From Kiritimatiellia bacterium (GTDB lineage Bacteria; Verrucomicrobiota; Kiritimatiellia; RFP12; UBA1067): 64,000 nt of DNA. Positions 4,032 through 46,064 of this stretch are shown piece after piece (the first letter of the stretch is position 1; every line of letters begins with the position of its first letter). Position numbers and translations under genes: made by a program. The notes below the pieces were generated by a model. It did not search any database. It saw nothing but the letters and a program-made list of their open reading frames with translations, and was not told the origin of the DNA. The DNA lies in the NCBI GenBank assembly GCA_017628025.1, contig JAGBZX010000018.1, positions 4,786 to 68,785 on the forward strand, in the 5' to 3' direction.

Positions 4032-4040
4032 AGCAGTTGT

Positions 4041-4069: not shown

Positions 4070-4122
4070 CTACTCTTTTTATAAAACTTTTAGTATACTA
4101 CAACCTCCAGTATACGCATAAG

Positions 4123-4421
4123 GGCAAAAACCACTCGTTCGCAATCCCTACGGACAAGGTCTCAGACTTCAAGGCCGCCGTTGCCTCCGGAAAGAAGCTG
4201 CGGGAACTCGTGCTCGAACTCTCGCTCACGAACGCCCGCGAGATTGCCTCAACCGAAACCCCTCTAACATAGGGCAACGCTTCAAGCAATCTGGCATGAT
4301 ATGGTCTCTCAAAGGCGCGAAGGCACTAATCCCGCTACGCACGCTTTATAAGTCGAACCGCCTGGAGCAATTTTTCGCATACCTCATAAAGGATCTGAAG
4401 CAGGTCGACTGCGCAGCATAA
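4123..4421 (+). pseudogene. C-terminal remnant of an IS transposase (ISKra4-like tail), frame-disrupted
   Basis: Plus-strand 4275-4421 translates to QRFKQSGMIWSLKGAKALIPLRTLYKSNRLEQFFAYLIKDLKQVDCAA*. The segment SGM-W-S--GA-A----R resembles the conserved C-terminal tail of ISKra4-type transposases as I recall them. 4123-4272 is open in another frame (GKNHSFAIPTDKVSDFKAAVASGKKLRELVLELSLTNAREIAS..) and ends in TAG. No N-terminal part is present. The GC content is locally elevated. Confidence 0.45.
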
Positions 4422-4506
4422 ACTACTCTGTCACAAAGTCAAAATGTCATTGGTTCTGCATAAAAATCTCGTTGCACCCTGGCAATATCTATTTCTGGTG
4501 GAACAC

Positions 4507-7500
4507 TTATCTGATCATTACTTGGAAACCTTCCGGCCAGACAATTTTTCCACCGTCGCCAGTTACGATTGTATTCGCCGCGATACGCTCCTCGTAATTC
4601 CCGCCTGTCCAACCTTTACCACCTTTATGGTCACGCGAAAGAAGTTTTATTTTACTCGAATTCAAATAAACCTTTGCGTTTGATGCCTTTAAAACCATAT
4701 CCTTCAACACAAGGGTAGATCCAATCTTCCATGTATCATTCTTGACCGTTATAGAATTACCACCAGAAATAATTACACGAACCTTTCTGTATTCCGAAAG
4801 ATTATCATTGGACATAGGAATATAAACCGTTCCTGAAGTATTATACGCTTGGTCGATAAATAGCTCCCCAACGCCTGAACCATCCTCTCGGTAGTATGTT
4901 CCGCCTGTATATCCACCTGCACTAATGGATACCCCATAATCACTCCATCCAATGCGCTCAGTTTGGTAAATCGCAATTCTTCCAGCAGAAGAATGCTGCG
5001 CCCAACCATCACCAGCCGTCGATCGAACTGAAATTGAACCAGCACCTTTTACACTAGCTCCAGAAACCCATACACTTCCGCCAGTACCAGGAGCATAACT
5101 AACAACCGACGAGCCAGCTTTTATTTCGCAATCCAACACGACATGCCCATCTGCAATTAGCCTAAATGCGCCGCCGCCGTGTGCACCAGCCGCATAACCA
5201 TGAGATCCCAAAGAAAATGGATGCAATATTGATCCGTATGGTTTATTACCTGCTTGAGACCCCAATCCTGCAAAAGCAGAGCCGCCCGTACCGCCTGCAG
5301 TCCTCCCTGGACCAATCGCGCCACTACCAAAGCCTTTATTCTCAATATTTACCGAAGAACCAGCCTCTAAAGTCGCATCACCTGCAACTTCAAAGTTGAG
5401 CTTATACACCTCCTTATTACCAGAAGTAGTCGCACCGTGCGTCAATGTTACCCCTCTTTCAAGAAGAAAATCTCCATCGATTTCGTTAGGGCTCGCCCAA
5501 TAACCGAAAGAGCACGTCGCTCCAGAGAGCATATAAAGCCCTCCTGCGATATCATGCTTATAATTCGACGTGAAATTAACCGTTCCACCGTCGCCGCCAA
5601 TGACGATTTCTCCTGTTGCTAAGTTACTAGACGTATTGACGGTCCAAGTTACGCCTGATGCAGGACATATACAAATCTGTGTTTCTGCTTGCGGAACTAT
5701 CCCGTTCGCCCAACAAGACTCAGTCGAAAACCCTGTCCCGCCGCCAATCCATTCTGCGGCAGCCGCAGGAGAAAAGTCGCAATTAAGGCTATTCCCGTTG
5801 CCATCGGTAGAAAGCGCCCCGAGTTTGATATCCGCGCCCAAAGACGCGTCGCAATTCGATAGAACTACGCCTCTCAGATGCTGCGGACCTGTAACTTTCA
5901 AATTCCATGGACCAGTCGAGCCAACTGAAAGCACATGGTCATACGCGCCGCTCTCTCCGACAAGACCGAAAAGCGAAAGATGATATACCTCTACAGTCTG
6001 TCCCGCGGCAAACGCGAGCGATAGGGGATTGGTCACGCGAGAAAGGAAGTGCCGCGCCTTAAAGCCGTTTTCAAACTCAATCGACCCGCCAGATTTAGCC
6101 ACAGTTATCCGCGAATACGAATTATTCCCCAAATCCACTTTCTGATAGCCGTCACCTTCAAACTTCAGAACATCATCCACCCCGAATGTCATCGTACCCA
6201 AAGACGAAAAGGCGTTTGTGACGATAAGATCTCCTCCTGAAAGCGTAATTGCCGCGCCCGCTTCATTCGTGAGCGAGTTCACGACTGTGTTGTTCGCTAT
6301 CAATGGATAACGATCGCGACCGCTAGGAATTAAAATACAATTCTCTTCATTCGGAACCATCATAGGATTCCAATTGCCAGCGTCAGTCCACGATGTACTT
6401 ATGTTACCAGTCCACTCAACAAGATCGCCAGGCTTTGAAGATGCCATAATTGACCAACCGATATTGTTGCCCAAGTCAACTCCGTCTTCATCAAGCGGCA
6501 TCATACCGGACGAAGCGTCAGAATCTTTTACATCACAATAAGAGATTGATACCGTCGCATCTGGCTCAATGGAAAGTTGCCACTGCGAATCGTCCGTCTT
6601 TGAGAGAAGATTAATTGCATTGCCCTCTTCACCCGCGAGTGATAAACTTCCTTTAGAAAGAATGGTTGTTTTGTTTCCTGATCCTTCCCCGAAGCGGATC
6701 GTCTTTCCGGGGGTTGTACAAGACAACGAAAAGAATTTGTTCGCGCCTTCAATTACAGCATCTTCGGGCCCCTCGAAAGTAACCTTCGACCCCTCCTCGC
6801 AACTAAACTTCCCCTTCAGAGTGCAAAGGCGCTTCGTTATCCTAAGATTTGCACCACTTGGAAGTTTTAAATGTGCACCATTAGTAACGATAACTGTCCC
6901 GAACACCTCGTTGCGGTCAATAACAAGTGAATCCATAGAAGTAGCACAATAATAGCTAGTTGGAGTAATATTACCGCTATCAATTAAAAGCGTACCCTCC
7001 CCATACACGTCACCGGCATGTTCAAGATATATCGTTCCACATCCAGCTTTCGTCGTGGCGCAACCATACGCCTTTACGGAGCCTTTGAATGCGTCGAACG
7101 AGTCTGCCACGGATTGGCGTATTGAAATACGACCGCCACCAGCGCCCGAAGAGCTCGTAACGCGTCCAGCCGATGCATCTATTGTTCCTTTACCAGAGAT
7201 AGAGCCGACTTTTAAGTATATACTCCCGCCAGTGCCGTTGTAGTAGTTCAAGCCCGCCTTACTAAGGACAGAAATCGTCCCATCAACTACTAGTTCACCA
7301 GCCACCTCAAGATACACTGCTCCGCCAGCCTTATATGACTCATTATTCCCACTATTTCCAGCGCCTCCCAAATCCTTCGGTTCACGTATAGACCCCCAAC
7401 AGCGCCTACTGGTAAGTTGATTACTATGACCTCCTACACCACCATAAGCAGGTTGATTAACGAGGTTACCTGTACCTATAGAACCGAAAGTTGCTCCATC

Positions 7501-9243
7501 AAAAGGCCCCTTCAAATCACCATTGACGCTGGCTCCAGAAGCTATATTCATCGTAGAGCACTTAAGACAAAGTTTGTACTGATTAGACTTGTTATTGTTA
7601 ATGCGGTGCGTCAATGTAGCGCCGCGAGCAACAGTTACCTTGCCAGCGACCTTGTTTAACTCAACTCCGTTACAGAAATTAACCGTTGGGTAAGCTTTTC
7701 CTTCGCCGCCGCCCACAATAAATTCGCCAATGTCCAAAGGTGAATTCACCGTAACGGTATAAGCCGAAGCCTTATTAGGCAGTATTACAATGGAATTTGC
7801 GCCAGGAACAACACCAAGACTCCAATTGGCGGCATCTTCGAAATTACCCGAGCCGCCCGTCCATATATTAAGTTCATCCGATGCAATGCTTGAGCAGGTA
7901 ATGGAGCACTGCGATTCAACAACAGGAATATCAAAAGATATTGAGGAATTATCCATTTCATTCATTACCGCGCCTGCTGGCAAGTTACCCCAAGTGAAGT
8001 ATGCATGATCTCCCTCTGATACATTGCGCGCGTATACCGTCACATTAGACGTTGCAAAGACATTAGGAAGTTGAATTGAAGAACCCCAATTCTCGCCATC
8101 AAAAGAAAATTCCGTATTTTCATCGCTAGATGACACAGCAAGATTAAACCTCGCCGCTTTACAAGTAATTTCAAGATCTTCTGGCGGGTTTTTAAATTGA
8201 ACTTGAGAATTGTTCTTATCAAGGAATTCAGCATCTGAGGGAAGCCCAGACCAGATAAAATGCGCTCCTTCAAAAACTGAATTTTGAGCTTTGATGGTAA
8301 CGGTAGAGGCATTTTCTACATCGTCTGCAACAATACTCGAGTGCCATGTTTCGCCATCGAAAGAAAGTTCCGTCTCGCTGTCAGCCGCCGAACAAGCAAC
8401 CGTTGTCTTAACACCAATTCCGAGAAAACGCTCTCTGTCAATTGCAAGGTTTGTGGCAATTTCCTCTGCGGTCAACTCCCTATTATAAAACCTTATGGCA
8501 TAAAGTCGCATTTTAGCACTAGTATTATTTGCCGCGCAACCAAGCCACACCGTATTCTTTGTGGGATCTGTCGATCCACCTTTGTTAGTGAGAATTACAT
8601 CTCCATCATCAATACTAAGGCTGGCACCTGTAGTAGAATTGATTCTTATGTTAAGTAAAATATCCTTATTTATGTATGATGATGTACTAATGCTAGGACA
8701 TGCCGACGCTTTGCCTGGGAAACTGGTACCATTTCTATACTGAAGGCCTCCTATTGCCCCATTCTTACAAATTGTATTATCTTCTCTTTGGTCGAGAATA
8801 AGTTGGCGGTAATTATTGCCGCCACCGACGGAAAGATAACCGCTAAACTTTAAATATGCTTCTGGCCGCACAAAAATCTGCACTGTCATCGCCTTATCTT
8901 TTAAAGCAGTTAAGATCGGGGCACTTGCTATCGAATAATACGCTTTAGCTCCTGCACCAGCAAAAGAAAGATATGTATCTTTTATAGATATGGTACCCGA
9001 CTTCGATGCTCCTGATCCAGAAACGATATCTTTCCATGTAGTGGCGGAAGCATTATGGATATCTCCTTGTTCGGCACTCCAGCCTGCATTCGCAATTGCA
9101 TCAAACTGAGCGATAAGTCCGTCTTGCACATAGTTCTTAACCGTCTTATCACCGTATGCAAGCACATTATTAGCCGTAAAGATAAGTATAATCCCTATAG
9201 CAAACCTACTCACAGAACAAAAGGATTTTATGATATTATTCAT
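4507..9243 (-). CDS. Giant secreted surface protein (1578 aa): signal peptide, LamG/concanavalin-like domain, two Ig-like repeats, and duplicated beta-helix-type modules
   Basis: The signal peptide ends ..NNVLA/YGD. The LamG-like region spans aa 35-275 (YVQDGLIAQFDAIANAG..RLYAIRFYNRELTAEEI). Two ~85-aa tandem repeats cover aa 277-450. Modules begin W-x-G-G-x-G-x-F...NW..G-x-VP at aa 460, 944 and 1165. The C-terminus is ..EGFQVMIR. An SD (AAAGGAAGAG) precedes the ATG. Confidence 0.9.
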   Translation of the reverse strand: MNNIIKSFCSVSRFAIGIILIFTANNVLAYGDKTVKNYVQDGLIAQFDAIANAGWSAEQGDIHNASATTWKDIVSGSGASKSGTISIKDTYLSFAGAGAKAYYSIASAPILTALKDKAMTVQIFVRPEAYLKFSGYLSVGGGNNYRQLILDQREDNTICKNGAIGGLQYRNGTSFPGKASACPSISTSSYINKDILLNIRINSTTGASLSIDDGDVILTNKGGSTDPTKNTVWLGCAANNTSAKMRLYAIRFYNRELTAEEIATNLAIDRERFLGIGVKTTVACSAADSETELSFDGETWHSSIVADDVENASTVTIKAQNSVFEGAHFIWSGLPSDAEFLDKNNSQVQFKNPPEDLEITCKAARFNLAVSSSDENTEFSFDGENWGSSIQLPNVFATSNVTVYARNVSEGDHAYFTWGNLPAGAVMNEMDNSSISFDIPVVESQCSITCSSIASDELNIWTGGSGNFEDAANWSLGVVPGANSIVILPNKASAYTVTVNSPLDIGEFIVGGGEGKAYPTVNFCNGVELNKVAGKVTVARGATLTHRINNNKSNQYKLCLKCSTMNIASGASVNGDLKGPFDGATFGSIGTGNLVNQPAYGGVGGHSNQLTSRRCWGSIREPKDLGGAGNSGNNESYKAGGAVYLEVAGELVVDGTISVLSKAGLNYYNGTGGSIYLKVGSISGKGTIDASAGRVTSSSGAGGGRISIRQSVADSFDAFKGSVKAYGCATTKAGCGTIYLEHAGDVYGEGTLLIDSGNITPTSYYCATSMDSLVIDRNEVFGTVIVTNGAHLKLPSGANLRITKRLCTLKGKFSCEEGSKVTFEGPEDAVIEGANKFFSLSCTTPGKTIRFGEGSGNKTTILSKGSLSLAGEEGNAINLLSKTDDSQWQLSIEPDATVSISYCDVKDSDASSGMMPLDEDGVDLGNNIGWSIMASSKPGDLVEWTGNISTSWTDAGNWNPMMVPNEENCILIPSGRDRYPLIANNTVVNSLTNEAGAAITLSGGDLIVTNAFSSLGTMTFGVDDVLKFEGDGYQKVDLGNNSYSRITVAKSGGSIEFENGFKARHFLSRVTNPLSLAFAAGQTVEVYHLSLFGLVGESGAYDHVLSVGSTGPWNLKVTGPQHLRGVVLSNCDASLGADIKLGALSTDGNGNSLNCDFSPAAAAEWIGGGTGFSTESCWANGIVPQAETQICICPASGVTWTVNTSSNLATGEIVIGGDGGTVNFTSNYKHDIAGGLYMLSGATCSFGYWASPNEIDGDFLLERGVTLTHGATTSGNKEVYKLNFEVAGDATLEAGSSVNIENKGFGSGAIGPGRTAGGTGGSAFAGLGSQAGNKPYGSILHPFSLGSHGYAAGAHGGGAFRLIADGHVVLDCEIKAGSSVVSYAPGTGGSVWVSGASVKGAGSISVRSTAGDGWAQHSSAGRIAIYQTERIGWSDYGVSISAGGYTGGTYYREDGSGVGELFIDQAYNTSGTVYIPMSNDNLSEYRKVRVIISGGNSITVKNDTWKIGSTLVLKDMVLKASNAKVYLNSSKIKLLSRDHKGGKGWTGGNYEERIAANTIVTGDGGKIVWPEGFQVMIR

Positions 9244-9276
9244 TATCTCTTCCTTTATAATATATTATTTTGTTAA

Positions 9277-9306
9277 ATTATAGCATTTACCCCCCCCCCC
9301 TGTCAA
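9277..9306 (-). promoter_or_regulatory. Sigma70-type promoter with a G11 homopolymer in the spacer (candidate phase-variable promoter of the giant protein gene)
   Basis: The minus strand reads TTGACA (9301-9306), G x11 (9290-9300), TAAATGC, then TATAAT (9277-9282). The spacer is 18 nt and TGC-TATAAT forms an extended -10. The promoter lies 34 nt upstream of the ATG. Confidence 0.7.
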
Positions 9307-9413
9307 ACGCTTTCTTCAAAAGTAGCTTTTTCTTGCTGCTTTTCTTACCGTTGTGCGCATCTCGCGCTTACAACATGATAGGAGATGATGAGCTTCTTGA
9401 TCCTCAAAAACTA

Positions 9414-10073
9414 TTATTCGGGTGCAACAATTTTTATCTTGCGACCATCTGGCAAAATAAAGCTTAATTCCACAGAGCGTAGCGCTAACGGGACGCGTTT
9501 TTTCGAACCATACTTTACATCACCTGAAACAGGATGTCCTGCCTCCGAAAAATGAACTCTTATTTGGTTCTTTCGCCCCGTCTCTAACTTAACTTCGACA
9601 TTTGTTGCATTTTTTAATCGAGACAACACCTTCCATCTGGTAATAGCTTTTTTGCCACCGTTAAGAACAGAACGCACCCTATAACCATCTGCGTCCTCAA
9701 GCATATAAGTCTCAAAAACACCTTCATCTTCTTCTATTACACCGTCTACTGTGGCGTGATAAGTCTTTTCTGTTAAATTAGCCCAGTCTGATCTAAAATA
9801 ATTAGCAACCTCTTCACTCTTGGCAAAAATCATCACTCCACTAGTATCCTTGTCTAGCCGATGAACCAACCATGCCCTAAGCCTGCTTTTTTGTTGACCC
9901 TTACGAAGATAATCGCTTAAGATATTTTCTGCTGTAATTTGCGATTGCTGCTCTCGCCTAGTTCCATAAAGCGTGTGCGTACTTAGCAATCCCGCCGGTT
10001 TATCTATAACGATGACATTTTTGTCCTCGTAAAGAATTTTAAATGGTAGCCTTTTGCCAGAACGACGCTTCAA
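9414..10073 (-). CDS. RluA-family pseudouridine synthase
   Basis: Contains the catalytic motif HRLDKDTSGVMIFAKS and the conserved C-terminal NQIRVH. Confidence 0.85.
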   Translation of the reverse strand: MKRRSGKRLPFKILYEDKNVIVIDKPAGLLSTHTLYGTRREQQSQITAENILSDYLRKGQQKSRLRAWLVHRLDKDTSGVMIFAKSEEVANYFRSDWANLTEKTYHATVDGVIEEDEGVFETYMLEDADGYRVRSVLNGGKKAITRWKVLSRLKNATNVEVKLETGRKNQIRVHFSEAGHPVSGDVKYGSKKRVPLALRSVELSFILPDGRKIKIVAPE

Positions 10074-10082
10074 TTTACCACC

Positions 10083-12041
10083 TCAACCAAACCTTGCTAA
10101 AAACTCGTCCTCTGTTATTATAGGTATTGAAAGAGCTGCTGCCTTCTTATTTTTAGATGATGAAGATGTTGCATCATTATTAACTAAGAAAGACGTCTTA
10201 GATGAAACAGCAGAGGCAACCTTGCCGCCTTGAGATACAACATAAGCTTTAAACTCGTCTCGATTAGCATAATGAGTAACATCGCCTGTTATGACAAATA
10301 TAAAGCCAGAACACTTGCCCCCAGCAGGCTCCTTAAATTCTTCAAGCGTAACTTCTGAAAGCACATCTCTTACTAATGCGATATTCTCTTCATCATGACA
10401 CCAACGCACAAACTCTGCTGATTTCGCAGGCCCTATCCCGTCAATATCAGAAAAGACTTCTTCTTCCGCTTTTGATGCAACTTCAAAAAGCTCTACCACC
10501 GAATAAGCAGATAAAAACTTTCGCGCAACATCTGGGCCGCACAATGGAATAGAAAGCGCATTAATAAACTTTACCGCATCTATCGTTCTGGCAGATTCGA
10601 TGGAATCTACAATTTTTTCTGCACTCTTTTCTCCAAATCCTTCCAATCTGGCTATATCGTTTTTATGACTGCCGAGCCTGTAGATGTCACCAAAATTCTT
10701 TATCCAGCCACAATCTATGAATCTTGCCAATGTCTTACCTGCTAAACCATCGATATTAGCACCTGCTTTTGAAACAAAACGCATAAACTTGCGCAATTCC
10801 CGTGCTGGGCACTTCGCGCTCGTGCAACGCAATGTCTTCGTGCCGGACTCTGATATATTTATCTCAGTAGGCGCACCACAAACTGGGCAAAAAGAAGGAA
10901 CCTCAAATTCTCCACACGGAGCTTTTACAGAGACAATTTTAGGAATAATTTTGTTGGCTTTTATTACCTCTATCTCTGTACCACTACCAGCTATACCAAG
11001 CCTCTCGCATTCTGAAATATTACAAAGAGAAGCGCGCTTAACTATAGTGCCTTCAAGTTCTACACTCTTAAACACCGCAACAGGAGAAATCGAAGCTACC
11101 GCTGTACTCCACTCGATTCTCTCTAGCGTCGTAAAAGCAGACTCATCCTTCCATTTAAAAGCGATACCCGAACGAATCGCGTGATGACCAGTTACAGAAC
11201 CAGAAGCGGCATACTCCAAATCATCATACGAGACGACAAGTCCATCTACTGGATAAGGATTAATACGACTTGTTACTTTATATGTCCACCCATCAATAAC
11301 TTCTGCTAGCGTCTGTTGGGTAGGCTCGACTACTAACTCCGATTCAACATGCTCAAAGCCTAAAGAAGTAATAAACGATACGGTCTTGTCTTTCGTCGTA
11401 AATTTTTCGTCTGAGTCGACTATAGAAAAGACAACCCATCTTATTTTGCGTAACTTTAATTCATTAATATCCTTTAAAGAAAGAGAGCCTGATGCTAGGT
11501 TACGGGGGTTAGAATAAACTTCTTGAGAAGTTGCTAAAAACTCTTCGAAGTCAGCATACGAAATCACAGCTTCTCCACGAAGCACAAGATGGCCCTTGTA
11601 ATCAATTTCATCTAATATGCCAGTTATCCCAGCAGACAAATGCGTTATATTAGTCCCAACATGACCATCGCCTCTAGTCACTACACTTTTTAACTTACCA
11701 CCACCGTAAGTTACAACTAAAGTTAAGCCATCAAGTTTCCAAGAAAGCCACACCCGCTTTAGCGAAGCCCATGATGCCAACTCCGCAACGCTCTTAGTTT
11801 TGGCTAAAGAAAGTGCTGGGTGTTCGTGCGCCTCCTTGCGCCCTGCAAGATTATCTGAAGAAACTCTCTGAGTAGGAGAATCATCAAGTATGACACCTGT
11901 TTTTTTCTCAAGTTCCTTTACTCTATCAAAAAGAGCATCCCACTCAAAATCCGTCATCAATTCGCCGCGACCGGAGTAGTACGCATCTGCGGCCTCATTA
12001 AGACGACGCACAGCCTGCTTCATTTCTTCAATCATACTCAT
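10083..12041 (-). CDS. ligA: NAD-dependent DNA ligase
   Basis: Contains the adenylation motif WKLDGLTLVV, an OB fold, a Zn finger (CPVCGAP..C..C), HhH repeats and a C-terminal BRCT domain. I prefer the start at 12041 (MSMIEEMKQAV..), which forms an ATGA overlap with the upstream stop. The track ORF extends to 12131. Confidence 0.9.
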   Translation of the reverse strand: MSMIEEMKQAVRRLNEAADAYYSGRGELMTDFEWDALFDRVKELEKKTGVILDDSPTQRVSSDNLAGRKEAHEHPALSLAKTKSVAELASWASLKRVWLSWKLDGLTLVVTYGGGKLKSVVTRGDGHVGTNITHLSAGITGILDEIDYKGHLVLRGEAVISYADFEEFLATSQEVYSNPRNLASGSLSLKDINELKLRKIRWVVFSIVDSDEKFTTKDKTVSFITSLGFEHVESELVVEPTQQTLAEVIDGWTYKVTSRINPYPVDGLVVSYDDLEYAASGSVTGHHAIRSGIAFKWKDESAFTTLERIEWSTAVASISPVAVFKSVELEGTIVKRASLCNISECERLGIAGSGTEIEVIKANKIIPKIVSVKAPCGEFEVPSFCPVCGAPTEINISESGTKTLRCTSAKCPARELRKFMRFVSKAGANIDGLAGKTLARFIDCGWIKNFGDIYRLGSHKNDIARLEGFGEKSAEKIVDSIESARTIDAVKFINALSIPLCGPDVARKFLSAYSVVELFEVASKAEEEVFSDIDGIGPAKSAEFVRWCHDEENIALVRDVLSEVTLEEFKEPAGGKCSGFIFVITGDVTHYANRDEFKAYVVSQGGKVASAVSSKTSFLVNNDATSSSSKNKKAAALSIPIITEDEFLARFG

Positions 12042-23699: not shown

Positions 23700-25859
23700 T
23701 TATCTGACTATAACCGAAAGACCGTAAACTTTATCTAAGCAAAACTTTATATTATCCAATGCGGAATGAGCAAAATTTCCTGGATTCTTGCCATCTGTTG
23801 AATCATTATCACTAATTGAACTTATTAGCAATACGAATCGCAACTTGTAAACACCAGGCTTTTTGACTCTGCAATATGACTCATATTGCTTATCCCAGAC
23901 TCGATTCTTGTCATATTGATGCACCATTTGGCCAAGAGAAATTTCTTTACCATCTTCATCAACAAGAAGAACATTAATCACCCACTTTGAATTAACAACT
24001 CGAGTATTATGGTATCCGGCAGAACCGATACAAGAAAACTTATATTCTCCTTTATCTGTTACTCTAACATCTGTCTCTATAACAGCATCTGTTCTCCCAT
24101 TAATATAATTATTTCCAGCCATAATAGCAGAAAGACCTTTTGCGTTATAAGTCTTTATCCCTGTATTAGTACACCCTTCCTTTTGGGCGGCCAAAATTCC
24201 TGTAAAACATATTGTTTTTGTCCCTTCTTTAACAATCGTCCAAGATCCAGCTGTCAATCGGTCAAAATTCCGAATTATATCTTTGCTGTGCGAAGAATTG
24301 TTATTTATTTCGAAATCACCATTTAAAATTAAATTATCCTTTTTATGAGCTGAAAAATACGCGTTAATCGTCATTGGTGCAGCAACGGCGGTAATTAATT
24401 TACTTTGCTCTATCAAACGCTGAGTTCCGTCTCCCCAACCGCCCCAGCCGACAAAGTTATCCATAGATGCAATTGCTACATTAATAGTATCTCCTTCTCT
24501 ATACCAGCCGGATTTATCTTCAACAAGGCTGCCTCTTTCGCATGAAGTTACTGTTGAAACATAATATTCTTTTATGAATTTCCATTTAAGAACAACGCCT
24601 TTATTTTCGCCTATCGCATACTGAACGGTGTCTGCAGTGCTTTGGTTATCTCTGTAATCATCTGCATATTCATCTATCAACACTGTTTCATCTTTATTCC
24701 AAAGTTCACAGCCTACACACACAGCTCGAACGCCTTCACTAACATCAGAAAACCTAGGAAAAGTATACTCGCCGCTACTTGGAAGTATTGGATATAACCC
24801 ATAAGTAATATCAGGCGAACCAAACTTTTCTGTAGTACTATCTATTACAATTCCTTGGAAATCATCATCGTTAAGCGCATATCTCAACACAACGATGCCA
24901 CTACCGCCGGAGCCGCCTCTGTTTGCCCCGCGTCCGCCGCCGCCACCGCCACCTGTAGAAGCTTCACCAGAATAAGCAGCTGAGTTGTATGTATCATTAT
25001 AACCACCGCCCTTGCCACCTCCTCCTTTTCCTCCATTTCCGCGATATGCGTTATAATAATTATAAGAACCGCCGCCACCGCCGCCAGCATACCAAGTTTC
25101 CACACCAACAATATACGAGGATCGTCCGTTACCACCATGACCTATACCGCTAGAACTTCCAACAGAAGTCCCGCCGCCGCCTGCGCCGCCGCCGCCTGCG
25201 CCAGGTGAATTACCTGATGTAGAAAAAGTTCTATTTCCACCATTGTTTCCTTGATCAGGTATTCCTGCTCCTCCTTGAGACGCATCATATGCCAGGCTAC
25301 CACTCGTACCAGCTCCACCTCCGCCGCTACCTCCATCAGAACCATTTGCGGCTTCTTTAGAAATTGCAGATCCACCAGCTCCGCCGCCGTAAGCAATTAT
25401 AGCATCTTGTCCGACCGCTGTAATTGAGGAATCTGCTCCATTTTTTGCCAGAGTTGAGCCTCCACCGGTAGCACCTGAACCACCTGCACCAACAACTATA
25501 TTTAAATCGGTATTTGCAGAAATACCGGTAAGAATACCTGTAAGCATGCCACCAGCGCCGCCACCGCCACCACCACCAGATGAAGCGCCGCCGCCGCCAC
25601 CACCGCCGGCAACGACTAGATAATTAATTATGCCTTCTTTAATGCCGGCGGGAACTTGCCAAGTGTGAGGATTTGTCTCATCGGCAACAGCTGTAAACGC
25701 TACAACATACTCAAGCGTTCCGTTTGGCAATAACAACGCCTGTGTGTAGCCGTTATCAGTAGTAACTTTCTGAGCAAAATATTTTGCCGCTATAGGTTCT
25801 TCAGCAACTACGGTAGAAGCGATAATAACCGCTGGAAGGAAAGAACGCAGATATTTCAT
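23700..25859 (-). CDS. Glycine-rich secreted surface protein, paralog B (719 aa)
   Basis: The signal peptide is MKYLRSFLPAVIIASTVVA/EEP with an AAAGGAG SD 8 nt upstream. The track start at 25886 is a GTG extension. Architecture: conserved N-terminal beta segment (..HTWQVPAG..YLVVAGGGGGGG), ~260-aa Gly-run domain ending GSGIVVLRY, an InlB-B-repeat-like segment (WYREGDTINV..FVGWGG..INAYF), a divergent jelly-roll-like C-terminal domain starting DNLILNGDFE, and the tail GLSVIVR. Confidence 0.85.
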   Translation of the reverse strand: MKYLRSFLPAVIIASTVVAEEPIAAKYFAQKVTTDNGYTQALLLPNGTLEYVVAFTAVADETNPHTWQVPAGIKEGIINYLVVAGGGGGGGASSGGGGGGGAGGMLTGILTGISANTDLNIVVGAGGSGATGGGSTLAKNGADSSITAVGQDAIIAYGGGAGGSAISKEAANGSDGGSGGGGAGTSGSLAYDASQGGAGIPDQGNNGGNRTFSTSGNSPGAGGGGAGGGGTSVGSSSGIGHGGNGRSSYIVGVETWYAGGGGGGSYNYYNAYRGNGGKGGGGKGGGYNDTYNSAAYSGEASTGGGGGGGRGANRGGSGGSGIVVLRYALNDDDFQGIVIDSTTEKFGSPDITYGLYPILPSSGEYTFPRFSDVSEGVRAVCVGCELWNKDETVLIDEYADDYRDNQSTADTVQYAIGENKGVVLKWKFIKEYYVSTVTSCERGSLVEDKSGWYREGDTINVAIASMDNFVGWGGWGDGTQRLIEQSKLITAVAAPMTINAYFSAHKKDNLILNGDFEINNNSSHSKDIIRNFDRLTAGSWTIVKEGTKTICFTGILAAQKEGCTNTGIKTYNAKGLSAIMAGNNYINGRTDAVIETDVRVTDKGEYKFSCIGSAGYHNTRVVNSKWVINVLLVDEDGKEISLGQMVHQYDKNRVWDKQYESYCRVKKPGVYKLRFVLLISSISDNDSTDGKNPGNFAHSALDNIKFCLDKVYGLSVIVR

Positions 25860-25889: not shown

Positions 25890-25918
25890 ATTTTATCATT
25901 TACCCCCCCCCCTGTCAA
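25890..25918 (-). promoter_or_regulatory. Sigma70-type promoter with a G10 homopolymer spacer (paralog B)
   Basis: The minus strand reads TTGACA (25913-25918), G x10 (25903-25912), TAAATGA, then TAAAAT (25890-25895). The spacer is 17 nt and TGA-TAAAAT forms an extended -10. Confidence 0.7.
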
Positions 25919-26066: not shown

Positions 26067-28637
26067 TTATCTGACCATGAGCGCGAAGCCACAACGCTTG
26101 TCAAGGCAAAGCGAGATGTTATCAAGCCCCATTGAAAGAGTATTATAAGTACCAATTCGAGACTCTTTTGGTATGGTAAATTTCAATTTATAAGCGCCTC
26201 CCTTTGGGATATTAAACTGCTGCACTTGTGATTTCCAGTTACTTTGACCAATATCTTTAACATCAAACTCTCCAATAGAAATTATCCTATCAGAATTATT
26301 TTTATCAACAAGCTCTACTTTTACTTTCCACTCATTATTTGCTATATTACTAGTATTCGCGCCTCTTACTAACATACAAGAGAATGTATAAAGCCCCCCA
26401 CAATGAGGATTTACATCACATGAAACACACCCTTCATCTCCATCATATAAGGTAGTCAGCTGCAGAGAAAGCCCTGTAAGTCCATACGATCTAATATTGG
26501 TACCATATGATAAATTATTGTGTGAAGAGATTATTCCACACACAAAATAACTACTTCCTGCATTCTGCTCTATATTCCAAGATCCGGCATTTAATAGTCT
26601 GAGGCTTCCTATAACATCCAGCTGACTAATATATTCTACATGTTGTTCAAAATCACCATTTAAAACAAGATTATCTTTAATATTTTGAGTAAAATATGCC
26701 GTTGCAACAATAGGTTTATTTTTAACTACTACTTCAGCCTGCGCCTCGCTTGGGCATCCGCCAGAAAAGAACCCACCCCAACCTTTAAAGCCTACGGTAG
26801 AAGCAACTTCAAGAGTTATCTCATCTCCAGTCTTATACCAACCAGACTTATTCTCTTTTAATGCACCATTACCTTCAACAACAGTCGAAACATAATACTC
26901 TTCACGCCATTTCCATGTTAAAAGAACCGGTTCTTCAAATTGAACAGAGGCTGAGACATTCCCGTTTTGTGCCTCGCTTACCGGGAAAACTTCAGATGTA
27001 ACACCTGTTGAAAATGAAGTAAGCGTATAACCTACACAATGTTGACGGATTGTTTCTGTTACCTCTGTAAATTCCGGAGCATAAAGTGTATAAGTGCTTC
27101 CAACGCTTGAATACGAAGCAAAATGATCTTCCAAAGAACCATTTATTGCAAATCCGTCATAACTAACCGTAATCCCACTAGGAATGAAAAATGCCTTGAT
27201 AGTTGTAGGTTTCGATTCAACCGTAAATGCATACTCATTTGAGGTATTCTCTAAATCCACACCATCTTTTTGCCATTTGCCCAAACTATAGTTAAATCCA
27301 GGAGTTGCTACGATAGTCATCAATGTACCTGAACTATAATAGCCAGTTGACACATTAAACGTGCCTTCTCTATCTTTTTCGATAGTAACTAAATAGCGAA
27401 GCTCCCACTGCCATTCAAGTGTAGATCCAGCACAAGAAGAATCAAGTATTGCCTTTAAATTAGTCTCACCTTCCGCAAGAGTCCCAGAAGAGCGAATAAG
27501 TTCTCCTGATGAACCATAAAGTTTCCACCCTGTGCAATACGCCCTTACACCATCTTCTACTTGTACATACTCTTGACAAGAATACTCATTTGCAGGAATT
27601 TCTTCATAAGCGCCATAAGCAGGAACAGGTGTGCCATAAGAGCCGCCAAAAGAAGAAATAATAATACCAGACGAAACATCTACTTTTGCGTAACGCAATA
27701 TAACAATACCACTACCACCAGCTCCGCCATCCTTTGATGCATGACCGCCCCCGCCTCCACCACCGAGACCATTCGTTCCGGGGTTGCCAACAGTAGCGTA
27801 GCCTATTTTCTTATCAGAGGTTCCTCCACCTCCATCGCCACCTCCACCAAGTCCTCCAGAACCAGAAGAATTATAAGTACTCGAATAACCAGCACCACCG
27901 CCGCCGCCACCATAATAAATTTCAGTACCAGTAATAGAAGATTTCCGGCCGTTCCCACCAGAGAACCCTGTAGCAGGCGCTCCTGCACCGCCACCGCCAT
28001 AACCTCTTGAATTGCCACCCATTGCGACCCTACCATATCCATTATTACCCTGTCCTTCAAATCCATTTCCTCCAGGAGCTGGATAACTCCTTGATGCACC
28101 TGCAGCCGTTCCCGCACCACCGCCGCCACTGCCGCCATCAGCACCACCAAACAAATCTTTCAAGTTCGCATCATTATAAATACCGCCGCCACCACCGCCT
28201 CCATAACTAGTCACCTTTCTTAATCCAAAAGCAATGTATGAATCCCCTCCATTTGAACCACGAATAGAACCGAGACCATGTTTCACTCCTCCTGCACCAC
28301 CGTCTCCTACTTTAATCTCAATTTCTTGATTGGGACTAACCGAGGAAGTCTCTTCTATCATACCGCCGCCACCACCACCGCCACCATGGTAGTATCCACC
28401 ACCGCCACCTCCGGCAACAACAAGATATTCCATAGAATACACACCAGACGGCACTGTAAATGAATGAGGCGTCGATGTATCAGTAAAAGCAACGACATAC
28501 TCTGTCTTCCCCTCTGCCGTTACAACTTCATTCGACCAGCCGCCTTCGATTTCAAACGGACCAGAAACAGATACATCTTGTGCATTAATAAAAGAAAATA
28601 CCGATATTCCAAGCGAAAAAACTATGCTCTTTTTCAT
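26067..28637 (-). CDS. Glycine-rich secreted surface protein, paralog C (856 aa)
   Basis: The signal peptide is MKKSIVFSLGISVFSFINA/QDV with a GGAGG SD. It has the same architecture as B and D, plus additional InlB-B-repeat-like modules (..GKWQKDGVDL..IKAFF, ..FKGWGG..ATAYF). The Gly-run domain spans aa 57-316 and ends GSGIVILRY. The C-terminal domain starts DNLVLNGDFE and the tail is GFALMVR. Confidence 0.9.
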   Translation of the reverse strand: MKKSIVFSLGISVFSFINAQDVSVSGPFEIEGGWSNEVVTAEGKTEYVVAFTDTSTPHSFTVPSGVYSMEYLVVAGGGGGGYYHGGGGGGGGMIEETSSVSPNQEIEIKVGDGGAGGVKHGLGSIRGSNGGDSYIAFGLRKVTSYGGGGGGGIYNDANLKDLFGGADGGSGGGGAGTAAGASRSYPAPGGNGFEGQGNNGYGRVAMGGNSRGYGGGGAGAPATGFSGGNGRKSSITGTEIYYGGGGGGAGYSSTYNSSGSGGLGGGGDGGGGTSDKKIGYATVGNPGTNGLGGGGGGGHASKDGGAGGSGIVILRYAKVDVSSGIIISSFGGSYGTPVPAYGAYEEIPANEYSCQEYVQVEDGVRAYCTGWKLYGSSGELIRSSGTLAEGETNLKAILDSSCAGSTLEWQWELRYLVTIEKDREGTFNVSTGYYSSGTLMTIVATPGFNYSLGKWQKDGVDLENTSNEYAFTVESKPTTIKAFFIPSGITVSYDGFAINGSLEDHFASYSSVGSTYTLYAPEFTEVTETIRQHCVGYTLTSFSTGVTSEVFPVSEAQNGNVSASVQFEEPVLLTWKWREEYYVSTVVEGNGALKENKSGWYKTGDEITLEVASTVGFKGWGGFFSGGCPSEAQAEVVVKNKPIVATAYFTQNIKDNLVLNGDFEQHVEYISQLDVIGSLRLLNAGSWNIEQNAGSSYFVCGIISSHNNLSYGTNIRSYGLTGLSLQLTTLYDGDEGCVSCDVNPHCGGLYTFSCMLVRGANTSNIANNEWKVKVELVDKNNSDRIISIGEFDVKDIGQSNWKSQVQQFNIPKGGAYKLKFTIPKESRIGTYNTLSMGLDNISLCLDKRCGFALMVR

Positions 28638-28667: not shown

Positions 28668-28696
28668 ATAATATCATTTACCCCCCCCCCTGTCAA
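28668..28696 (-). promoter_or_regulatory. Sigma70-type promoter with a G10 homopolymer spacer (paralog C)
   Basis: The minus strand reads TTGACA (28691-28696), G x10 (28681-28690), TAAATGA, then TATTAT (28668-28673). The spacer is 17 nt. Confidence 0.7.
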
Positions 28697-28928: not shown

Positions 28929-31085
28929 TTATCTAACCATGAGCGCGAAGCCAAAACGCTTTTTAAGTTTAAGCATGAGGTTGTCTATCGCTGAATGAGC
29001 ATTAACATTATCGTTAACATCATTTTTGTATACCTTAGATCTTTCTATTTTAAATATCAATTTATAAATTCCGCCTTTTCGAATTTGAATTTCAAAAGGA
29101 TAATTTGCCTTAGAAGCATTATCTTTTTGAAGGATATTACAAACATTTACCTCTTCACCACTTCCATTTTTTTGTAAATAAACACTTATCTCCCATGTTG
29201 TTGCATTTACATCACCTGGATCTGCATCAAATGATAAATCATAAAGACCTGAACACGGTATATTGACATAACAACTTATTGATGCAGTTCCTGAGTAGTT
29301 AGTGTTTTTTCCTTTTGTCCCTATAATTCCTGAATGATTACCACTTATGACCTTTGAGCCAGAGTTTGCTACACCTGTCGATCTAGCACTTAATAATCCT
29401 GTTGGATAGGATGTATAAGAATTTTGTGTAGATTCCCATATTCCTCCTATTAAACGAGAAAATGTCGTATCTATCGTCGTAGAATCGCTAGTATTTCCAC
29501 TCATTTCAAAATCGCCATTAAGTACCAAATTATCTTTATTATGCGCTGTAAAGTAAGCGGTAATTGTCATTGGTGCAGCAACAACTTCAATTGTTTTACT
29601 TGGCTCAATTGAACGATCTGCGTTAATTCCCCAGCCGCCCCAGCCGATAAAGTTGTCCATAGAGGTAATTGCTACTTGAATAGTATCGCCTGCTCTATAC
29701 CAACCGGATTTGTCTGCAACAAGGCTGCCTCTCTCGCAAGAAGCTACAGTTGAAACATAATATTCTTTTTCAAATTTCCATTTAAGGATAACGCCTTTTT
29801 CAGAATCGTTCCTTGTGAAAGTAATCGTTTTTGATAAATCAGTTTCTTCGTATGGAGGATTTTCCGAATCAAAAGTATCAGACCTGATTAGATACTCTTC
29901 ACCTTCTTCATTCCTACCATAAAGTTCCCAACCAATACAAGTAGCCCTTGCACCTTCGCTAAGTACCGTATATTTCGGACAAGTAAATGCGCTATTACTC
30001 GGTAGTTCCTTGTAAATATCATAAGCAGGACTTGGTGTACCAAACTTCTCAGTAGTAGAATCAACTGCAATACCTTGGAAATTATCGTTATTAAGCGCAT
30101 ATCTCAACACAACAATGCCGCTATCGCCTGAGCCGCCCGATCGGTAACCTCTCGCGCCACCGCCACCACCGCCTGTAGAAGCAGTTCCCGACCCTCCATT
30201 ACCTACTGGTTCATTGCTTATATTACCGCCAGCGCCACCTCCGCCAGCGCCACCAAGACCATTATTATCAATCGAGTTACCATAGGTACCGCCGCCACCA
30301 CCACCAGCATACCGAACCTGTGCACCAGTGATATAAGAATATCTACCATCCCCACCATGCCCTCGATTATTGGTATTAGCAGTTGTAATCGTAATTCCTG
30401 CCATCCCTGCTCCGCCACCTCCTGCTCCTGGTCTATTTTGGGTAGTATCCGAGGTTCTGTTACCACCTGCAAAACCTTGTCCTTCCACGCAAGTTCCACC
30501 AGTTGTTGGTAATTTAGCTGAACTGCCACTTGTTCCAGCAGCACCGCCACCACTGCCACCAGCTGAACCATTAGCAACATCTTGAGAATATGCAGAGCCT
30601 CCAGCACCACCACCAATGGCAATTATATCAGTCGCCCCTTTAATAAAGGAATCTTCACCATTATTTGCTACTTTATTTGCACTAGAACCGCCGCCACCAC
30701 CAGCGCCAACAACAATAGTTAAATCAGTACTTTCAGAAATACTATTAAGCGTGCCTGTAAGCATACCGCCACCGCCGCCGCCACCGCCGCCACCACCAGA
30801 GGATGCATTATTACCAGTACCGCCACCGCCACCACCGGCGACGACTAGATAATCAATTTTGCTGTCTTTAACATTGGCGGGAACTTGCCAAGTGTGAGGA
30901 TTTGATTCATCATTAACAGTTGTAAATGCAACGACATATTCAAGTGTTCCATCGGGCAACAACAATGTCTGCGTGTACCCGCTATCAGTCGTTTCTTTTT
31001 GAGCAAAATATTGTGCCGCCGTAGGCTCTGCAAGAACAGAAGAAGCAACAAAAAATACCGAGACAAACGAAAGCAACAATTTCAT
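28929..31085 (-). CDS. Glycine-rich secreted surface protein, paralog D (718 aa)
   Basis: I prefer the start at 31085 (MKLLLSFVSVFFVASSVLA/EPT) with a GGAGG SD 8 nt upstream. The track ORF runs on to 31412 through non-coding-looking sequence. D is close to B in the N-terminal, Gly-run and B-repeat parts. Its C-terminal domain (from DNLVLNGDFE) is strongly divergent, and the tail is GFALMVR. Confidence 0.85.
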   Translation of the reverse strand: MKLLLSFVSVFFVASSVLAEPTAAQYFAQKETTDSGYTQTLLLPDGTLEYVVAFTTVNDESNPHTWQVPANVKDSKIDYLVVAGGGGGGTGNNASSGGGGGGGGGGGMLTGTLNSISESTDLTIVVGAGGGGGSSANKVANNGEDSFIKGATDIIAIGGGAGGSAYSQDVANGSAGGSGGGAAGTSGSSAKLPTTGGTCVEGQGFAGGNRTSDTTQNRPGAGGGGAGMAGITITTANTNNRGHGGDGRYSYITGAQVRYAGGGGGGTYGNSIDNNGLGGAGGGGAGGNISNEPVGNGGSGTASTGGGGGGARGYRSGGSGDSGIVVLRYALNNDNFQGIAVDSTTEKFGTPSPAYDIYKELPSNSAFTCPKYTVLSEGARATCIGWELYGRNEEGEEYLIRSDTFDSENPPYEETDLSKTITFTRNDSEKGVILKWKFEKEYYVSTVASCERGSLVADKSGWYRAGDTIQVAITSMDNFIGWGGWGINADRSIEPSKTIEVVAAPMTITAYFTAHNKDNLVLNGDFEMSGNTSDSTTIDTTFSRLIGGIWESTQNSYTSYPTGLLSARSTGVANSGSKVISGNHSGIIGTKGKNTNYSGTASISCYVNIPCSGLYDLSFDADPGDVNATTWEISVYLQKNGSGEEVNVCNILQKDNASKANYPFEIQIRKGGIYKLIFKIERSKVYKNDVNDNVNAHSAIDNLMLKLKKRFGFALMVR

Positions 31086-31110: not shown

Positions 31111-31141
31111 ATTTTATCATTTACCCCCCCCCTGGTGTCAA
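31111..31141 (-). promoter_or_regulatory. Sigma70-type promoter with a CCA+G9 spacer (paralog D), 19-nt spacing
   Basis: The minus strand reads TTGACA (31136-31141), CCA, G x9 (31124-31132), TAAATGA, then TAAAAT (31111-31116). The spacer is 19 nt. Confidence 0.6.
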
Positions 31142-31842: not shown

Positions 31843-32745
31843 TTAAGGTCTTGGATGGAACCTGCGATGCATCTCGCCAAATTTGCGCTCGTCAATATGA
31901 GTATATATCTGAGTTGTGCCAATATCTGCATGACCAAGCATCTCTTGTATCGCTCTTATATCAGCGCCATGTTGCAACATATGCGACGCAAATGAATGCC
32001 TCAAAACGTGTGGCGAAATTCTATTAGCCGAGATTCCTGCAATAGCAGCTCTTTCTCTAAGCAACTTAAAAATACCCTGCCGCGTAAATGGTCGACCTAA
32101 ACGAGTTACAAAAAGGATACTCTCAAACTCCGGTAACTTTGGAAACGTAGGTCTAGACTTATCTAAATAATTACAAAGCGCATTTCCAGCAGCATTGCCT
32201 AACGGTATTAATCTCTCTTTTGAACCCTTACCCATTACACGCAAAAGCTCTCCATCGGCTACTATATCATCTAGTCTTATTGCACAAAGCTCTGACACTC
32301 TAAGCCCACAGCCATACAAAAACTCTATTATCGCCCTATCCCTTAGAGATCTAGGGTCTTCTGCCGTAATTAATTCTATAAGATTTTGCGTTTCATCCTC
32401 TGAAAGAACTCGTGGCAATACACGAGCTCTCCTTGATGACTCAATAAGCTCAGAAGGTGCTGTTTTCAAAACGCCTTGAGAGACTAGAAAACTAAAAAAA
32501 CCTCTTAATGCTGCTACTCTTCTCGTGCGTGTCGCAGAAGACTTACCTTCATCTCGCTCTACTTCAAGAAATTGAGTTATATCAGAACGAACAACTTCTG
32601 AAGATTCTGTCTTTGCGCGCTTTGAAAGAAAATCTCTAAAAAACGACAAATCACTTGAATACGCCAACGACGTATTCGAAGACAAGCCTTTTTCCAAAAG
32701 CAACGAGGCAACAAAATCTGCAATATCGTCTTTTAATAAACCCAT
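31843..32745 (-). CDS. xerD: Tyrosine site-specific recombinase, XerD/XerC type
   Basis: The catalytic region is HVLRHSFASHMLQHGADIRAIQEMLGHADIGTTQIYTHI, with GLRVSELCAIRLDDI and GKGSKERLIPLG. The 300-aa length is typical of Xer and lacks an integron-integrase insertion. Confidence 0.75.
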   Translation of the reverse strand: MGLLKDDIADFVASLLLEKGLSSNTSLAYSSDLSFFRDFLSKRAKTESSEVVRSDITQFLEVERDEGKSSATRTRRVAALRGFFSFLVSQGVLKTAPSELIESSRRARVLPRVLSEDETQNLIELITAEDPRSLRDRAIIEFLYGCGLRVSELCAIRLDDIVADGELLRVMGKGSKERLIPLGNAAGNALCNYLDKSRPTFPKLPEFESILFVTRLGRPFTRQGIFKLLRERAAIAGISANRISPHVLRHSFASHMLQHGADIRAIQEMLGHADIGTTQIYTHIDERKFGEMHRRFHPRP

Positions 32746-44592: not shown

Positions 44593-45921
44593 TTAACGGC
44601 TCATCCACCGACGAAGTTCTTGACGAACCTTCGGGTCAACATCGTGTGTGCAATGAGGCATTATAACAGCTGCCTTGTCTTTAACTTTAATCTCATTATA
44701 TGCAGAATATGCCGACGTCGGAGAAACTACTAAATCACCAAAACTAATAATTACTCTAACTGGACATTTTATACGAGAGGCAAAATTTGCCGCATCATAA
44801 TATGGAATATTTTTTAGTGCCGCAGCAAACTCATCAGGGCGCTTTTTATAAACCTCTAGAAAGTATGGCCAGCCACTGCGACGCCCCTCTAGACACCCCA
44901 TTAAATCGCAAAGTCCAGGAACGAAAATCAAAGATCTCGTAAACGAATGATTTAAACCGCACAAATAAAACCCAAAACCGCCCCCTTGGCTTGTGCCTTG
45001 ATACCACACCTTGGTACGATCAACATCGTCTCTTGAAACAAGATAATTAATCGCCCTATCAATACCAAGTATATGGGGATAATAGTAATAATCTTCTGGT
45101 GATTTTTCGATTATTCCTGCATTAGAATAACCTGGGACGCGGTATTTTTGCATCAGCTGCTTTTCAAACTCATTGTATTTATCCTCTAGCCCCGTTTCAC
45201 GCCATTTCCAATCTGGCTCAAATGGAAACATTGTAAAAAACACACTTATGCGGTCTCGTCTACCGTTCATATCATTGGAATGGTCGCCAAACCCAGCTGA
45301 TGAAACTGAAATTTCTAGCGGATAAGGCTTTTTTGCCTTTTTAGGCACACTCATATATGCATGAATACGCTGCTTATATGTAGCAAACGAGATTCTATAA
45401 TATGTAAAATATTCAGTTGAACGCTCTGGGACTTCACGCATTTGCACGTCAATTGGAACATCCCTTTCAAGTTTAGCCTTAGCTTGACTCCAAAACTTAT
45501 CAAAATCAGGATTATCTGGAACTACTTTTTTAATTTTTTCCACATCAAATCCAAGTGAATACATGCGACGCGAGAACTCTTTCACCGAGCCATCATAATC
45601 CTTAGCATAGCAATTCCTCACCATGCACCTTACAAAACCTGGCTTGTCAAGTGTTACTTCGTATTTCGCTGGATTAGCTTTAGAAAAATCCACTTTTCCA
45701 ACATAAAGCATATTTGTACCGCAATCATCCATAACAAATCTTACTGAGCCAGAAGTAACCTTTTGTCCGTTAGTTGTAAGTCCAGTTACGAAGAGAGAAG
45801 CCTTTTCTCCAACTTTATAAAGGCAATCTTTGCGATCTGCTGAAAACTCAACAAGAATAGGTTCTGCAGCAAATGCCATAGAAGCGACAGCGACAACTAA
45901 AAACATCAACATATTTTTCAT
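44593..45921 (-). CDS. Acetylxylan esterase / cephalosporin-C deacetylase-like (CE7-type) serine hydrolase, secreted
   Basis: It has the nucleophile elbow GTSQGGG. I prefer the start at 45921 (MKNMLMFLVVAVASMAFA signal peptide). The track ORF extends to 45972. Confidence 0.7.
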   Translation of the reverse strand: MKNMLMFLVVAVASMAFAAEPILVEFSADRKDCLYKVGEKASLFVTGLTTNGQKVTSGSVRFVMDDCGTNMLYVGKVDFSKANPAKYEVTLDKPGFVRCMVRNCYAKDYDGSVKEFSRRMYSLGFDVEKIKKVVPDNPDFDKFWSQAKAKLERDVPIDVQMREVPERSTEYFTYYRISFATYKQRIHAYMSVPKKAKKPYPLEISVSSAGFGDHSNDMNGRRDRISVFFTMFPFEPDWKWRETGLEDKYNEFEKQLMQKYRVPGYSNAGIIEKSPEDYYYYPHILGIDRAINYLVSRDDVDRTKVWYQGTSQGGGFGFYLCGLNHSFTRSLIFVPGLCDLMGCLEGRRSGWPYFLEVYKKRPDEFAAALKNIPYYDAANFASRIKCPVRVIISFGDLVVSPTSAYSAYNEIKVKDKAAVIMPHCTHDVDPKVRQELRRWMSR

Positions 45922-46064
45922 TGTTCTTACCTTATGAAAACGAAAGACGTATAAATACTTCACTAAGTACAATTAGGCTTATTTAATATTCGCCTATTAT
46001 ATCATTTGCCCCCAGTATTAGCAAGAAATCAAAAAATTATTCTAGCTTTGATATTAGTGGGGAA

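Follow-up and report, generated by a model that had tools for sequence, protein, structure and literature searches.

The 64-kb stretch of DNA analysed here, which we call the window, carries on its minus strand a gene for a 1578-aa exported protein. Directly upstream lies a promoter, P1, whose spacer is filled by an uninterrupted run of G residues. The features of the locus, in the direction of transcription, are as follows.

9301..9306, minus strand: -35 hexamer of P1, TTGACA, a consensus match (12 of 12 positions together with the -10 hexamer)
9290..9300, minus strand: G11 homopolymeric tract in the spacer of P1, the hypermutable element as judged from its sequence and from the allele series described below
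9283..9289, minus strand: TAAATGC block of P1, made up of an A/T-rich segment and a TGn extended -10, the TG preceding the second hexamer
9277..9282, minus strand: -10 hexamer of P1, TATAAT, assigned from the sequence
9247..9255, minus strand: Shine-Dalgarno sequence AAGGAAGAG in the short leader, assigned from the sequence
4507..9243, minus strand: gene for the 1578-aa exported protein, with a signal peptide and a C-terminal tag (...PEGFQVMIR)

Read on the minus strand from 9306 to 9277, P1 is TTGACA-G11-TAAATGC-TATAAT, with 18 nt between the hexamers and a 33-nt leader to the ATG at 9243. This string, with its 18-nt spacer and extended -10, is exactly the one that a sequence-only reading of this DNA had described. 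A mechanical promoter scan of positions 4000-10200 gave P1 as the sole 12/12 sigma-70 match with an upstream TG, and sigma-70 geometry predicts a transcription start near 9269-9271. Between P1 and the pseudouridine-synthase gene that precedes it, no terminator was predicted, so that read-through could mask an OFF state or give basal expression. An Rfam scan found no RNA families near P1, its sole matches being two tRNAs near 46.1 kb. Two other readings of the element were dropped by argument: that it forms a G-quadruplex, since an intramolecular quadruplex needs more than one G run, and that it is served by an alternative sigma factor, since the hexamers are the sigma-70 consensus.

Three further poly-G promoters are present in the window, each upstream of a gene for a glycine-rich protein.

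25890..25918, minus strand: P2, TTGACA-G10-TAAATGA-TAAAAT, spacer of 17 nt, upstream of the gene for a 719-aa Gly_rich_2 protein (23700..25859)
28668..28696, minus strand: P3, TTGACA-G10-TAAATGA-TATTAT, spacer of 17 nt, upstream of the gene for an 856-aa Gly_rich_2/Flg_new_2 protein (26067..28637)
31111..31141, minus strand: P4, TTGACA-CCA-G9-TAAATGA-TAAAAT, spacer of 19 nt with an interrupted tract, upstream of the gene for a 718-aa Gly_rich_2 protein (28929..31085)

TTGACA followed by G8 or longer was counted three times in the window, where shuffled sequences predict 0.01, P4 being a fourth, interrupted site. The P1-P4 tracts are the only G/C runs of at least 7 nt in the 64 kb; such runs were absent from the remainder of the window and from 61 kb of related loci, and A/T runs of at least 9 nt were not found in the window at all. 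When P1-P4 were aligned, similarity was confined to the core from -35 to -10 and to the Shine-Dalgarno sequence, with unrelated upstream sequences and leaders. Within the core, TAAATG is identical at all four sites. No inverted repeats were found flanking P1-P4, those nearby being terminator hairpins only. The match between the core of P1 and those of P2-P4 bears out the proposal that the same poly-G design stands before a non-homologous exported protein.

Two further observations concern the surroundings of these sites. A promoter on the minus strand at 45990-46025 (TTGCTA-ATACTGGGGGC-AAATGA-TATAAT), upstream of the gene for a signal-peptide protein (44593..45972), has the poly-G promoter layout with G5 only, and is a possible precursor or decayed form; we refer to it below by its position, 46004. 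In the 757-nt intergenic region upstream of P4 (31086-31842), a 37-nt sequence is repeated exactly and in direct orientation (31255-31291 and 31773-31809), and a related 33-nt repeat family is present. The region adjoins a tyrosine recombinase gene (Phage_integrase, 31843..32745), for which no link to the promoters was found.

The proteins encoded behind the four promoters all carry signal peptides. Those of P2-P4 are three Gly_rich_2 (PF21722) paralogs, two of which share 50% identity; for the 718-aa protein, gene callers had placed the start further upstream. The 1578-aa protein, by comparison, gave no significant Pfam or NCBIfam match, Gly_rich_2 included, and a PDB sequence search also returned nothing. 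A BLASTP alignment of this protein with the 856-aa protein had an E value of 0.17, and when the C-terminal 140 aa were compared as profiles with hhalign, the alignment was limited to the last 15 columns, with a probability of 1%. Together, the BLASTP value and the 15-column alignment uphold the view, first taken from the sequence, that the 1578-aa protein is not a Gly_rich_2 paralog. A shared C-terminal domain behind the shared tail was rejected, given that the profile-profile alignment extends over these last 15 columns only.

The architecture of the 1578-aa protein was approached through AlphaFold models. In the model of residues 1-450 (pLDDT 78), residues ~40-275 matched ConA-like lectin domains, with an E value of 7e-10 for a trans-sialidase lectin domain and further matches to BoNT HCN and SraP. 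Weak Laminin_G_3 matches were also obtained with some homologs of the protein, among them P0003 with 24.5 bits, under the cut-off of 27.6. The 'LamG' label previously given to this protein finds no counterpart in Pfam or NCBIfam; the ConA-like structure match and the weak Laminin_G_3 matches of homologs support it at the level of the fold, the model pointing to a ConA-like/LamG lectin fold at the N-terminus. For residues 451-1050 the model had a similar pLDDT (79) and its best PDB structure match reached only 5e-3. The top matches of this segment were all right-handed beta-helix adhesins, lyases or tailspikes and there was no Beta_helix Pfam match, so that the model is suggestive only of beta-helix or beta-solenoid repeats. 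Ig-like beta-sandwiches were also assigned to the protein. This lectin-domain protein is probably located on the cell surface, a predicted localisation.

All four products of P1-P4 end in a common tag, G-[FLMT]-x-[VIL]-x-[VIF]-[R/K]-COOH, which can be summarised as G-Φ-x-Φ-x-Φ-R/K. The tagged C-termini are encoded at the following positions.

4507-4530, minus strand: C-terminus of the 1578-aa protein (P1)
23700-23723, minus strand: C-terminus of the 719-aa protein (P2)
26067-26090, minus strand: C-terminus of the 856-aa protein (P3)
28929-28952, minus strand: C-terminus of the 718-aa protein (P4)

These are the only tagged products in the window (4 of about 44-55 ORFs). In Kiritimatiellae-type loci from other genomes, with and without poly-G promoters, the tag ends 7 of 102 ORFs, compared to 1 of 322 in other loci; it was also seen in L006, L029, L031, L075, L086, L003 and L087. 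Examples are GFQVMIR, GLSVIVR, GFALMVR, GFAVTVR and GMQVIFR. The tag is kept in homologs of the 1578-aa protein down to 26-30% identity, and no Pfam or NCBIfam model covers it. It may represent a sorting signal not described before.

We compared the window with independent assemblies that encode identical or near-identical proteins, using consensus sequences only. The P1 tract differed in length among seven assemblies, being G11 in two (the window and L060), G10 in three (L001, L002 and L090) and G9 in two (L088 and L091), while its flanks from -30 to +60 nt were identical in all seven. L001 differed from the window by a single G in this tract and by nothing else over 7,976 nt. P2 was G9 in L055 and G10 in the window, L058 and L088; P3 was G9 in L057, G10 in the window, L056 and L059, and G11 in L055. 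The interrupted G9 tract of P4 showed no variation in three assemblies (the window, L055 and L059). The modal tract at P1, P2 and P3 is therefore G10, giving a 17-nt spacer, with neighbouring alleles at plus or minus one. The G10 alleles of P1 in other assemblies agree with the suggestion that G11 lies a single slip away from a 17-nt optimum. Read across P1, P2 and P3, tract lengths were 11/10/10 in the window vs. 10/9/11 in sample ERZ27256945.

Length variation was concentrated in the G tracts. Same-strain comparisons over 42.9 kb yielded 6 substitutions and 4 indels, and all four indels fell in G tracts. G runs differed in 4 of 9 comparisons vs. 0 of 11 for A/T runs of at least 7 nt, these control runs (7-8) being shorter than the G runs. 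In a strain group of 99.2% identity, no indel other than that of the P1 tract was seen over 17.0 kb for L088 or over 13.3 kb for L091. Two contigs end inside tracts: L054 at P2 (positions 1-7) and the NCBI MAG contig L089 at P1 (15348-15355). Illumina and assembler errors climb steeply at G runs of 9 nt or more, and could be behind some of the differences in consensus length and some of the contig breaks. The promoters had the same orientation in every assembly examined, and the differences seen were length changes of 1-2 nt. Since the tracts fragment assemblies, indels at such sites in MAGs should not be taken as strain markers.

In a more diverged strain (L058, 96-99% identical), the hexamers and TAAATGA are intact and the G runs have decayed: the P4 tract to GGTTTGGTGT, with a spacer of 17 nt (region 3525-3560), the P3 tract to GGGCTGGGCGTG, with a spacer of 19 nt (region 5938-5975), and the tract of an extra promoter copy to GGGGGAGGG (region 8700-8740). 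The strain also carries an additional 717-aa gene between the paralogs. The decayed tracts are 'locked' alleles, the usual fate of contingency loci. As the G runs were lost while the hexamers and TAAATGA persisted, the G run is a length filler rather than a sequence-specific site. A repeated element end, 'ccttgcctttccgatttgactcaNttaattgtacaa', was found beside an insertion in L058 (9310-9370) and at the opening of contigs L003 and L004 (1-60); assemblies probably break here at the terminus of an IS or MITE.

The TAAATG block had been described as conserved, and at P1-P4 it is. Part of it is nevertheless the ordinary extended -10 of this genome: WWWTGn-TAWWAT is also found in the window at intergenic promoters of the ordinary kind (51286, 46004, 23667 and 4049), meaning that the TGn and the A/T richness are what this genome normally uses. 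An unbiased metagenome scan with the pattern TTGACA-G(9 or more)-N0-9-TGnTAWWAT returned 24 promoters, with TAAA before the TGn in just 3. Some of the 21 promoters lacking TAAA drive products that bear the C-terminal tag. The idea of TAAATG as a universal companion of poly-G promoters was rejected on this count, the exact TAAA being lineage-specific and not mechanistically required. Base n of TAAATGn is itself variable, changing from A to T in L059.

As for the origin of the P1 cassette, the genes of homologs of the 1578-aa protein at 60%, 30% and 28% identity either are preceded by ordinary promoters or belong to an operon, in keeping with the earlier argument that the promoter was not inherited by gene duplication. 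The spacer in front of the 60% homolog (L003) is already G-rich (GCCGCGGGTGG-ATTTGA), which makes evolution of the P1 cassette in situ plausible beside the alternative of its acquisition by recombination.

The distribution of the design was examined by scanning one genome per species with TTGACA-N0-3-G8-N0-6-TAAATG, a pattern that itself required TAAATG. The 49 loci obtained showed no synteny with or similarity to the window. Clusters were seen in one sheep-colon Kiritimatiellae MAG, with 5 sites, in one Kiritimatiellia MAG, with 2 (G10 and G13), and in two 'Verrucomicrobia' MAGs. An uncultured Bacilli MAG forms a separate cluster of 9 sites. All sites of the Kiritimatiellae-type loci lie upstream of a gene for a signal-peptide protein, with tracts of G9-G13 and spacers of 16-20 nt, and the products are non-homologous (Beta_helix, Laminin_G_3 with DUF2341, PEP-CTERM and unknown). 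A search of the kind proposed at the outset thus places the sites of related Kiritimatiellae MAGs before signal-peptide proteins only. Isolated matches in other phyla, some of them before cytoplasmic-looking proteins and with poor -10 elements, look like chance.

Three groups of sites lie outside this main distribution. The Bacilli MAG CAKOLD01, from Hadza gut (L005, L007, L014, L015, L023, L047, L049 and L052), has nine TTGACA(A)-G11..G14-(C)TAAATG-TATAAT sites, most with a conserved leader of ~95 nt, before genes for ~510-680-aa paralogs that begin with a transmembrane segment ('...YAYYKTK') and match nothing in Pfam; these sites form a poly-G promoter family independent of the others, in a lineage of Gram-positive type. 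Loci L062, L076 and L078 of the Ga0265298 metagenome share a second lineage-specific cassette, '...tttgcat TTGACA G10-11 (N)TTT TGG TAAAAT', with a 19-nt spacer. It precedes genes for signal-peptide proteins, two of which have tag-like ends (GMVLYVR and GMKIIFY). Lastly, L040, binned as Anaerovoracaceae, has TTGACA-G12-TAAATGTGATATAAT before the gene for a 1000-aa DUF2341 and Laminin_G_3 protein with the architecture of the Kiritimatiellae-type L029 protein; this short contig may be mis-binned.

The best explanation of the data, and one that we consider likely, is that P1 is a spacer switch operated by poly-G slippage and one of several independent contingency loci. P1 would be a sigma-70-type promoter with an extended -10 and a hypermutable poly-G tract that fills its spacer. 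As the DNA is replicated, slipped-strand mispairing would add or remove single G residues, moving the spacer between 16, 17 and 18 nt, and the length of the spacer would grade transcription up or down, with 17 nt (G10) as the expected optimum and the G11 tract of the window one step off it. At least four such switches would operate in the 64-kb stretch, each changing on its own, and the population would express differing combinations of tagged exported proteins, that is, a 'phasome'. Both the geometry of sigma-70 spacers and the clustering of lengths on the 17-nt value suggest that tract length affects transcription, and we infer that switching within the population is reversible. An extended -10 (TGn) lowers the dependence of a promoter on its -35 and on spacing; with the TGn buffering the spacing in this way, P1 may work more as a dimmer, or its tract length may matter little.

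Several of these points can also be read in another way, namely that P1 is a fixed, constitutively strong promoter, G-rich by chance, and that the length differences are artefacts or neutral polymorphism. Sequencing error at G runs of 9 nt or more would fit this reading, as would the fact that contig breaks can come from poor reads alone, the capacity of the extended -10 to absorb changes in the spacer, the invariance of P4 in three assemblies, and the G-rich upstream half of the spacer at ordinary promoters of the clade (L003, GCCGCGGGTGG; 46004 in the window, G5). However, 4 of 9 consensus comparisons differ while 42.9 kb of flanking sequence is almost identical, and the lengths cluster tightly on the 17-nt value plus or minus one. 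Moreover, within about 125 kb, perfect G9-G13 runs are confined to the spacer position; they recur in several MAGs and before exported proteins only, and the decayed alleles of another strain fit the life cycle of a contingency locus. We therefore regard a fixed promoter as improbable.

The sequence-only reading had favoured a 'phase-variable regulon' in the sense of shared regulation. In its strict form, a trans-acting factor would read the G-run/TAAATG cassette and switch the four genes together. TAAATG is indeed identical at the four sites, the four products share a C-terminal tag, and the TAAATG cassette recurs before unrelated genes in other Kiritimatiellae MAGs, where the scan required TAAATG. 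The regulon nonetheless seems to us less probable still than a fixed promoter: nothing is conserved outside the core promoter, the TGn part is the general extended -10 of the genome, base n is not constant (A to T in L059), the promoter survives when its G run decays into unrelated sequence, and TAAA is missing from 21 of 24 poly-G promoters, including some with tagged products. Tract states also vary independently between samples, which argues for independent contingency loci, each with its own switch in cis, rather than a regulon. The remaining candidate, site-specific recombination of an invertible or transposed promoter cassette by the tyrosine recombinase (31843..32745), has in its favour the position of this Phage_integrase-family gene at the edge of the Gly-rich cluster and the appearance of the core promoter as a four-copy 'repeat' (family D11). 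It is nevertheless very improbable, with no inverted repeats flanking P1-P4, the same promoter orientation in every assembly examined, a recombinase gene 22 kb away from P1, and every observed difference a length change of 1-2 nt.

Neighbouring genes (LpxB, LpxI, LigA and others) indicate a diderm host, the YebC protein of the window falls into a cluster at 90% identity with NCBI proteins from Kiritimatiellae/Kiritimatiellia MAGs, and the samples with identical genes are ruminant gastrointestinal metagenomes. Taking the poly-G switches together with the tag, we tentatively raise the broader possibility, about which we remain rather doubtful, of an undescribed clade-wide system of host-associated Kiritimatiellia, consisting of a phase-variable surface repertoire and a new sorting signal. 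The repertoire would comprise large surface proteins of lectin, beta-helix and glycine-rich types, phase-variable in combination. If true, the PVC superphylum would have its first simple-sequence-repeat phasome, and commensal uncultured gut bacteria would be using a contingency-locus strategy usually tied to pathogens. To our knowledge, nearly all that has been learnt of phase variation by promoter repeat tracts comes from pathogens in culture, such as Neisseria, Haemophilus, Treponema, Mycoplasma and Campylobacter. Work on gut commensals has so far concentrated on invertible promoters. The mechanism itself is textbook, and the gain would therefore be one of breadth and not of a new principle; the most original by-product is the probable new C-terminal sorting tag. 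Ordinary metagenome assemblies suffice to expose a multi-locus poly-G switch with states that differ from sample to sample. The analysis also identifies the variable proteins of ruminant-gut Kiritimatiellia, the selective pressure on which is presumably phage, immune or substrate. On the practical side, poly-G tracts break contigs and create spurious 'strain' indels in MAGs.

The arrangement proposed for P1-P4 has relatives among known systems. The clustered vlp lipoprotein genes of Mycoplasma hyorhinis each have a poly-A tract in the -35/-10 spacer, and they switch independently to give combinatorial surface phenotypes. All vlp genes are paralogs, whereas the poly-G design described here is shared with a gene of no homology at a distance of 14-16 kb, and the vlp tract is poly-A, not poly-G. 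In its established sense, a 'phase-variable regulon' is a phasevarion, in which a phase-variable DNA methyltransferase acts on many genes in trans. Each of the P1-P4 genes, in contrast, has its own cis switch and independent states, with no methyltransferase in evidence. Multi-locus phasomes based on simple sequence repeats have been described for Neisseria and Campylobacter (PMC5953494; PMC6321876).

The closest parallels are promoters with poly-G in the spacer itself. In N. meningitidis porA, ~9-11 G residues lie in the -35/-10 spacer and transcription is best at 17 nt (PMC7864442). As described there, porA resembles P1 in that a G tract fills the sigma-70 spacer of a surface-protein promoter and a change of 1 nt shifts the spacing to or from 17 nt, which in porA grades transcription. 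The two differ in their hosts, porA belonging to a pathogen of the Proteobacteria and P1 to an uncultured ruminant-gut commensal of the Kiritimatiellota. They differ also in that P1 has perfect consensus hexamers and a TGn extended -10, and in that its design is repeated at several loci for non-homologous proteins. T. pallidum tp0126 likewise has poly-G between the -35 and -10 and is transcribed best with 17 nt, and in Treponema tracts lengths of 7-11 G coexist in vivo (PMC7864442). With the tpr genes (E, G, J and L), tp0126 forms a set of several genes for outer-membrane or exported proteins in one genome, with variable promoter poly-G, much like P1-P4. In most tpr genes, however, the tract comes immediately before the point where transcription starts and not in the spacer; the Treponema proteins are unrelated to the P1-P4 products, and their variation was shown within isolates by fragment analysis, whereas ours is seen between assemblies. 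A search of the literature on Kiritimatiell* with phase variation or homopolymeric tracts returned no paper. At P1, as in a promoter of the porA/tp0126 kind, the tract lies between the hexamers, is polymorphic with invariant flanks, and precedes the gene for an exported product. P1-P4 are thus most likely a case of porA/tp0126-type spacer phase variation, as far as their sequences and alleles allow us to judge, and one not previously reported in this phylum.
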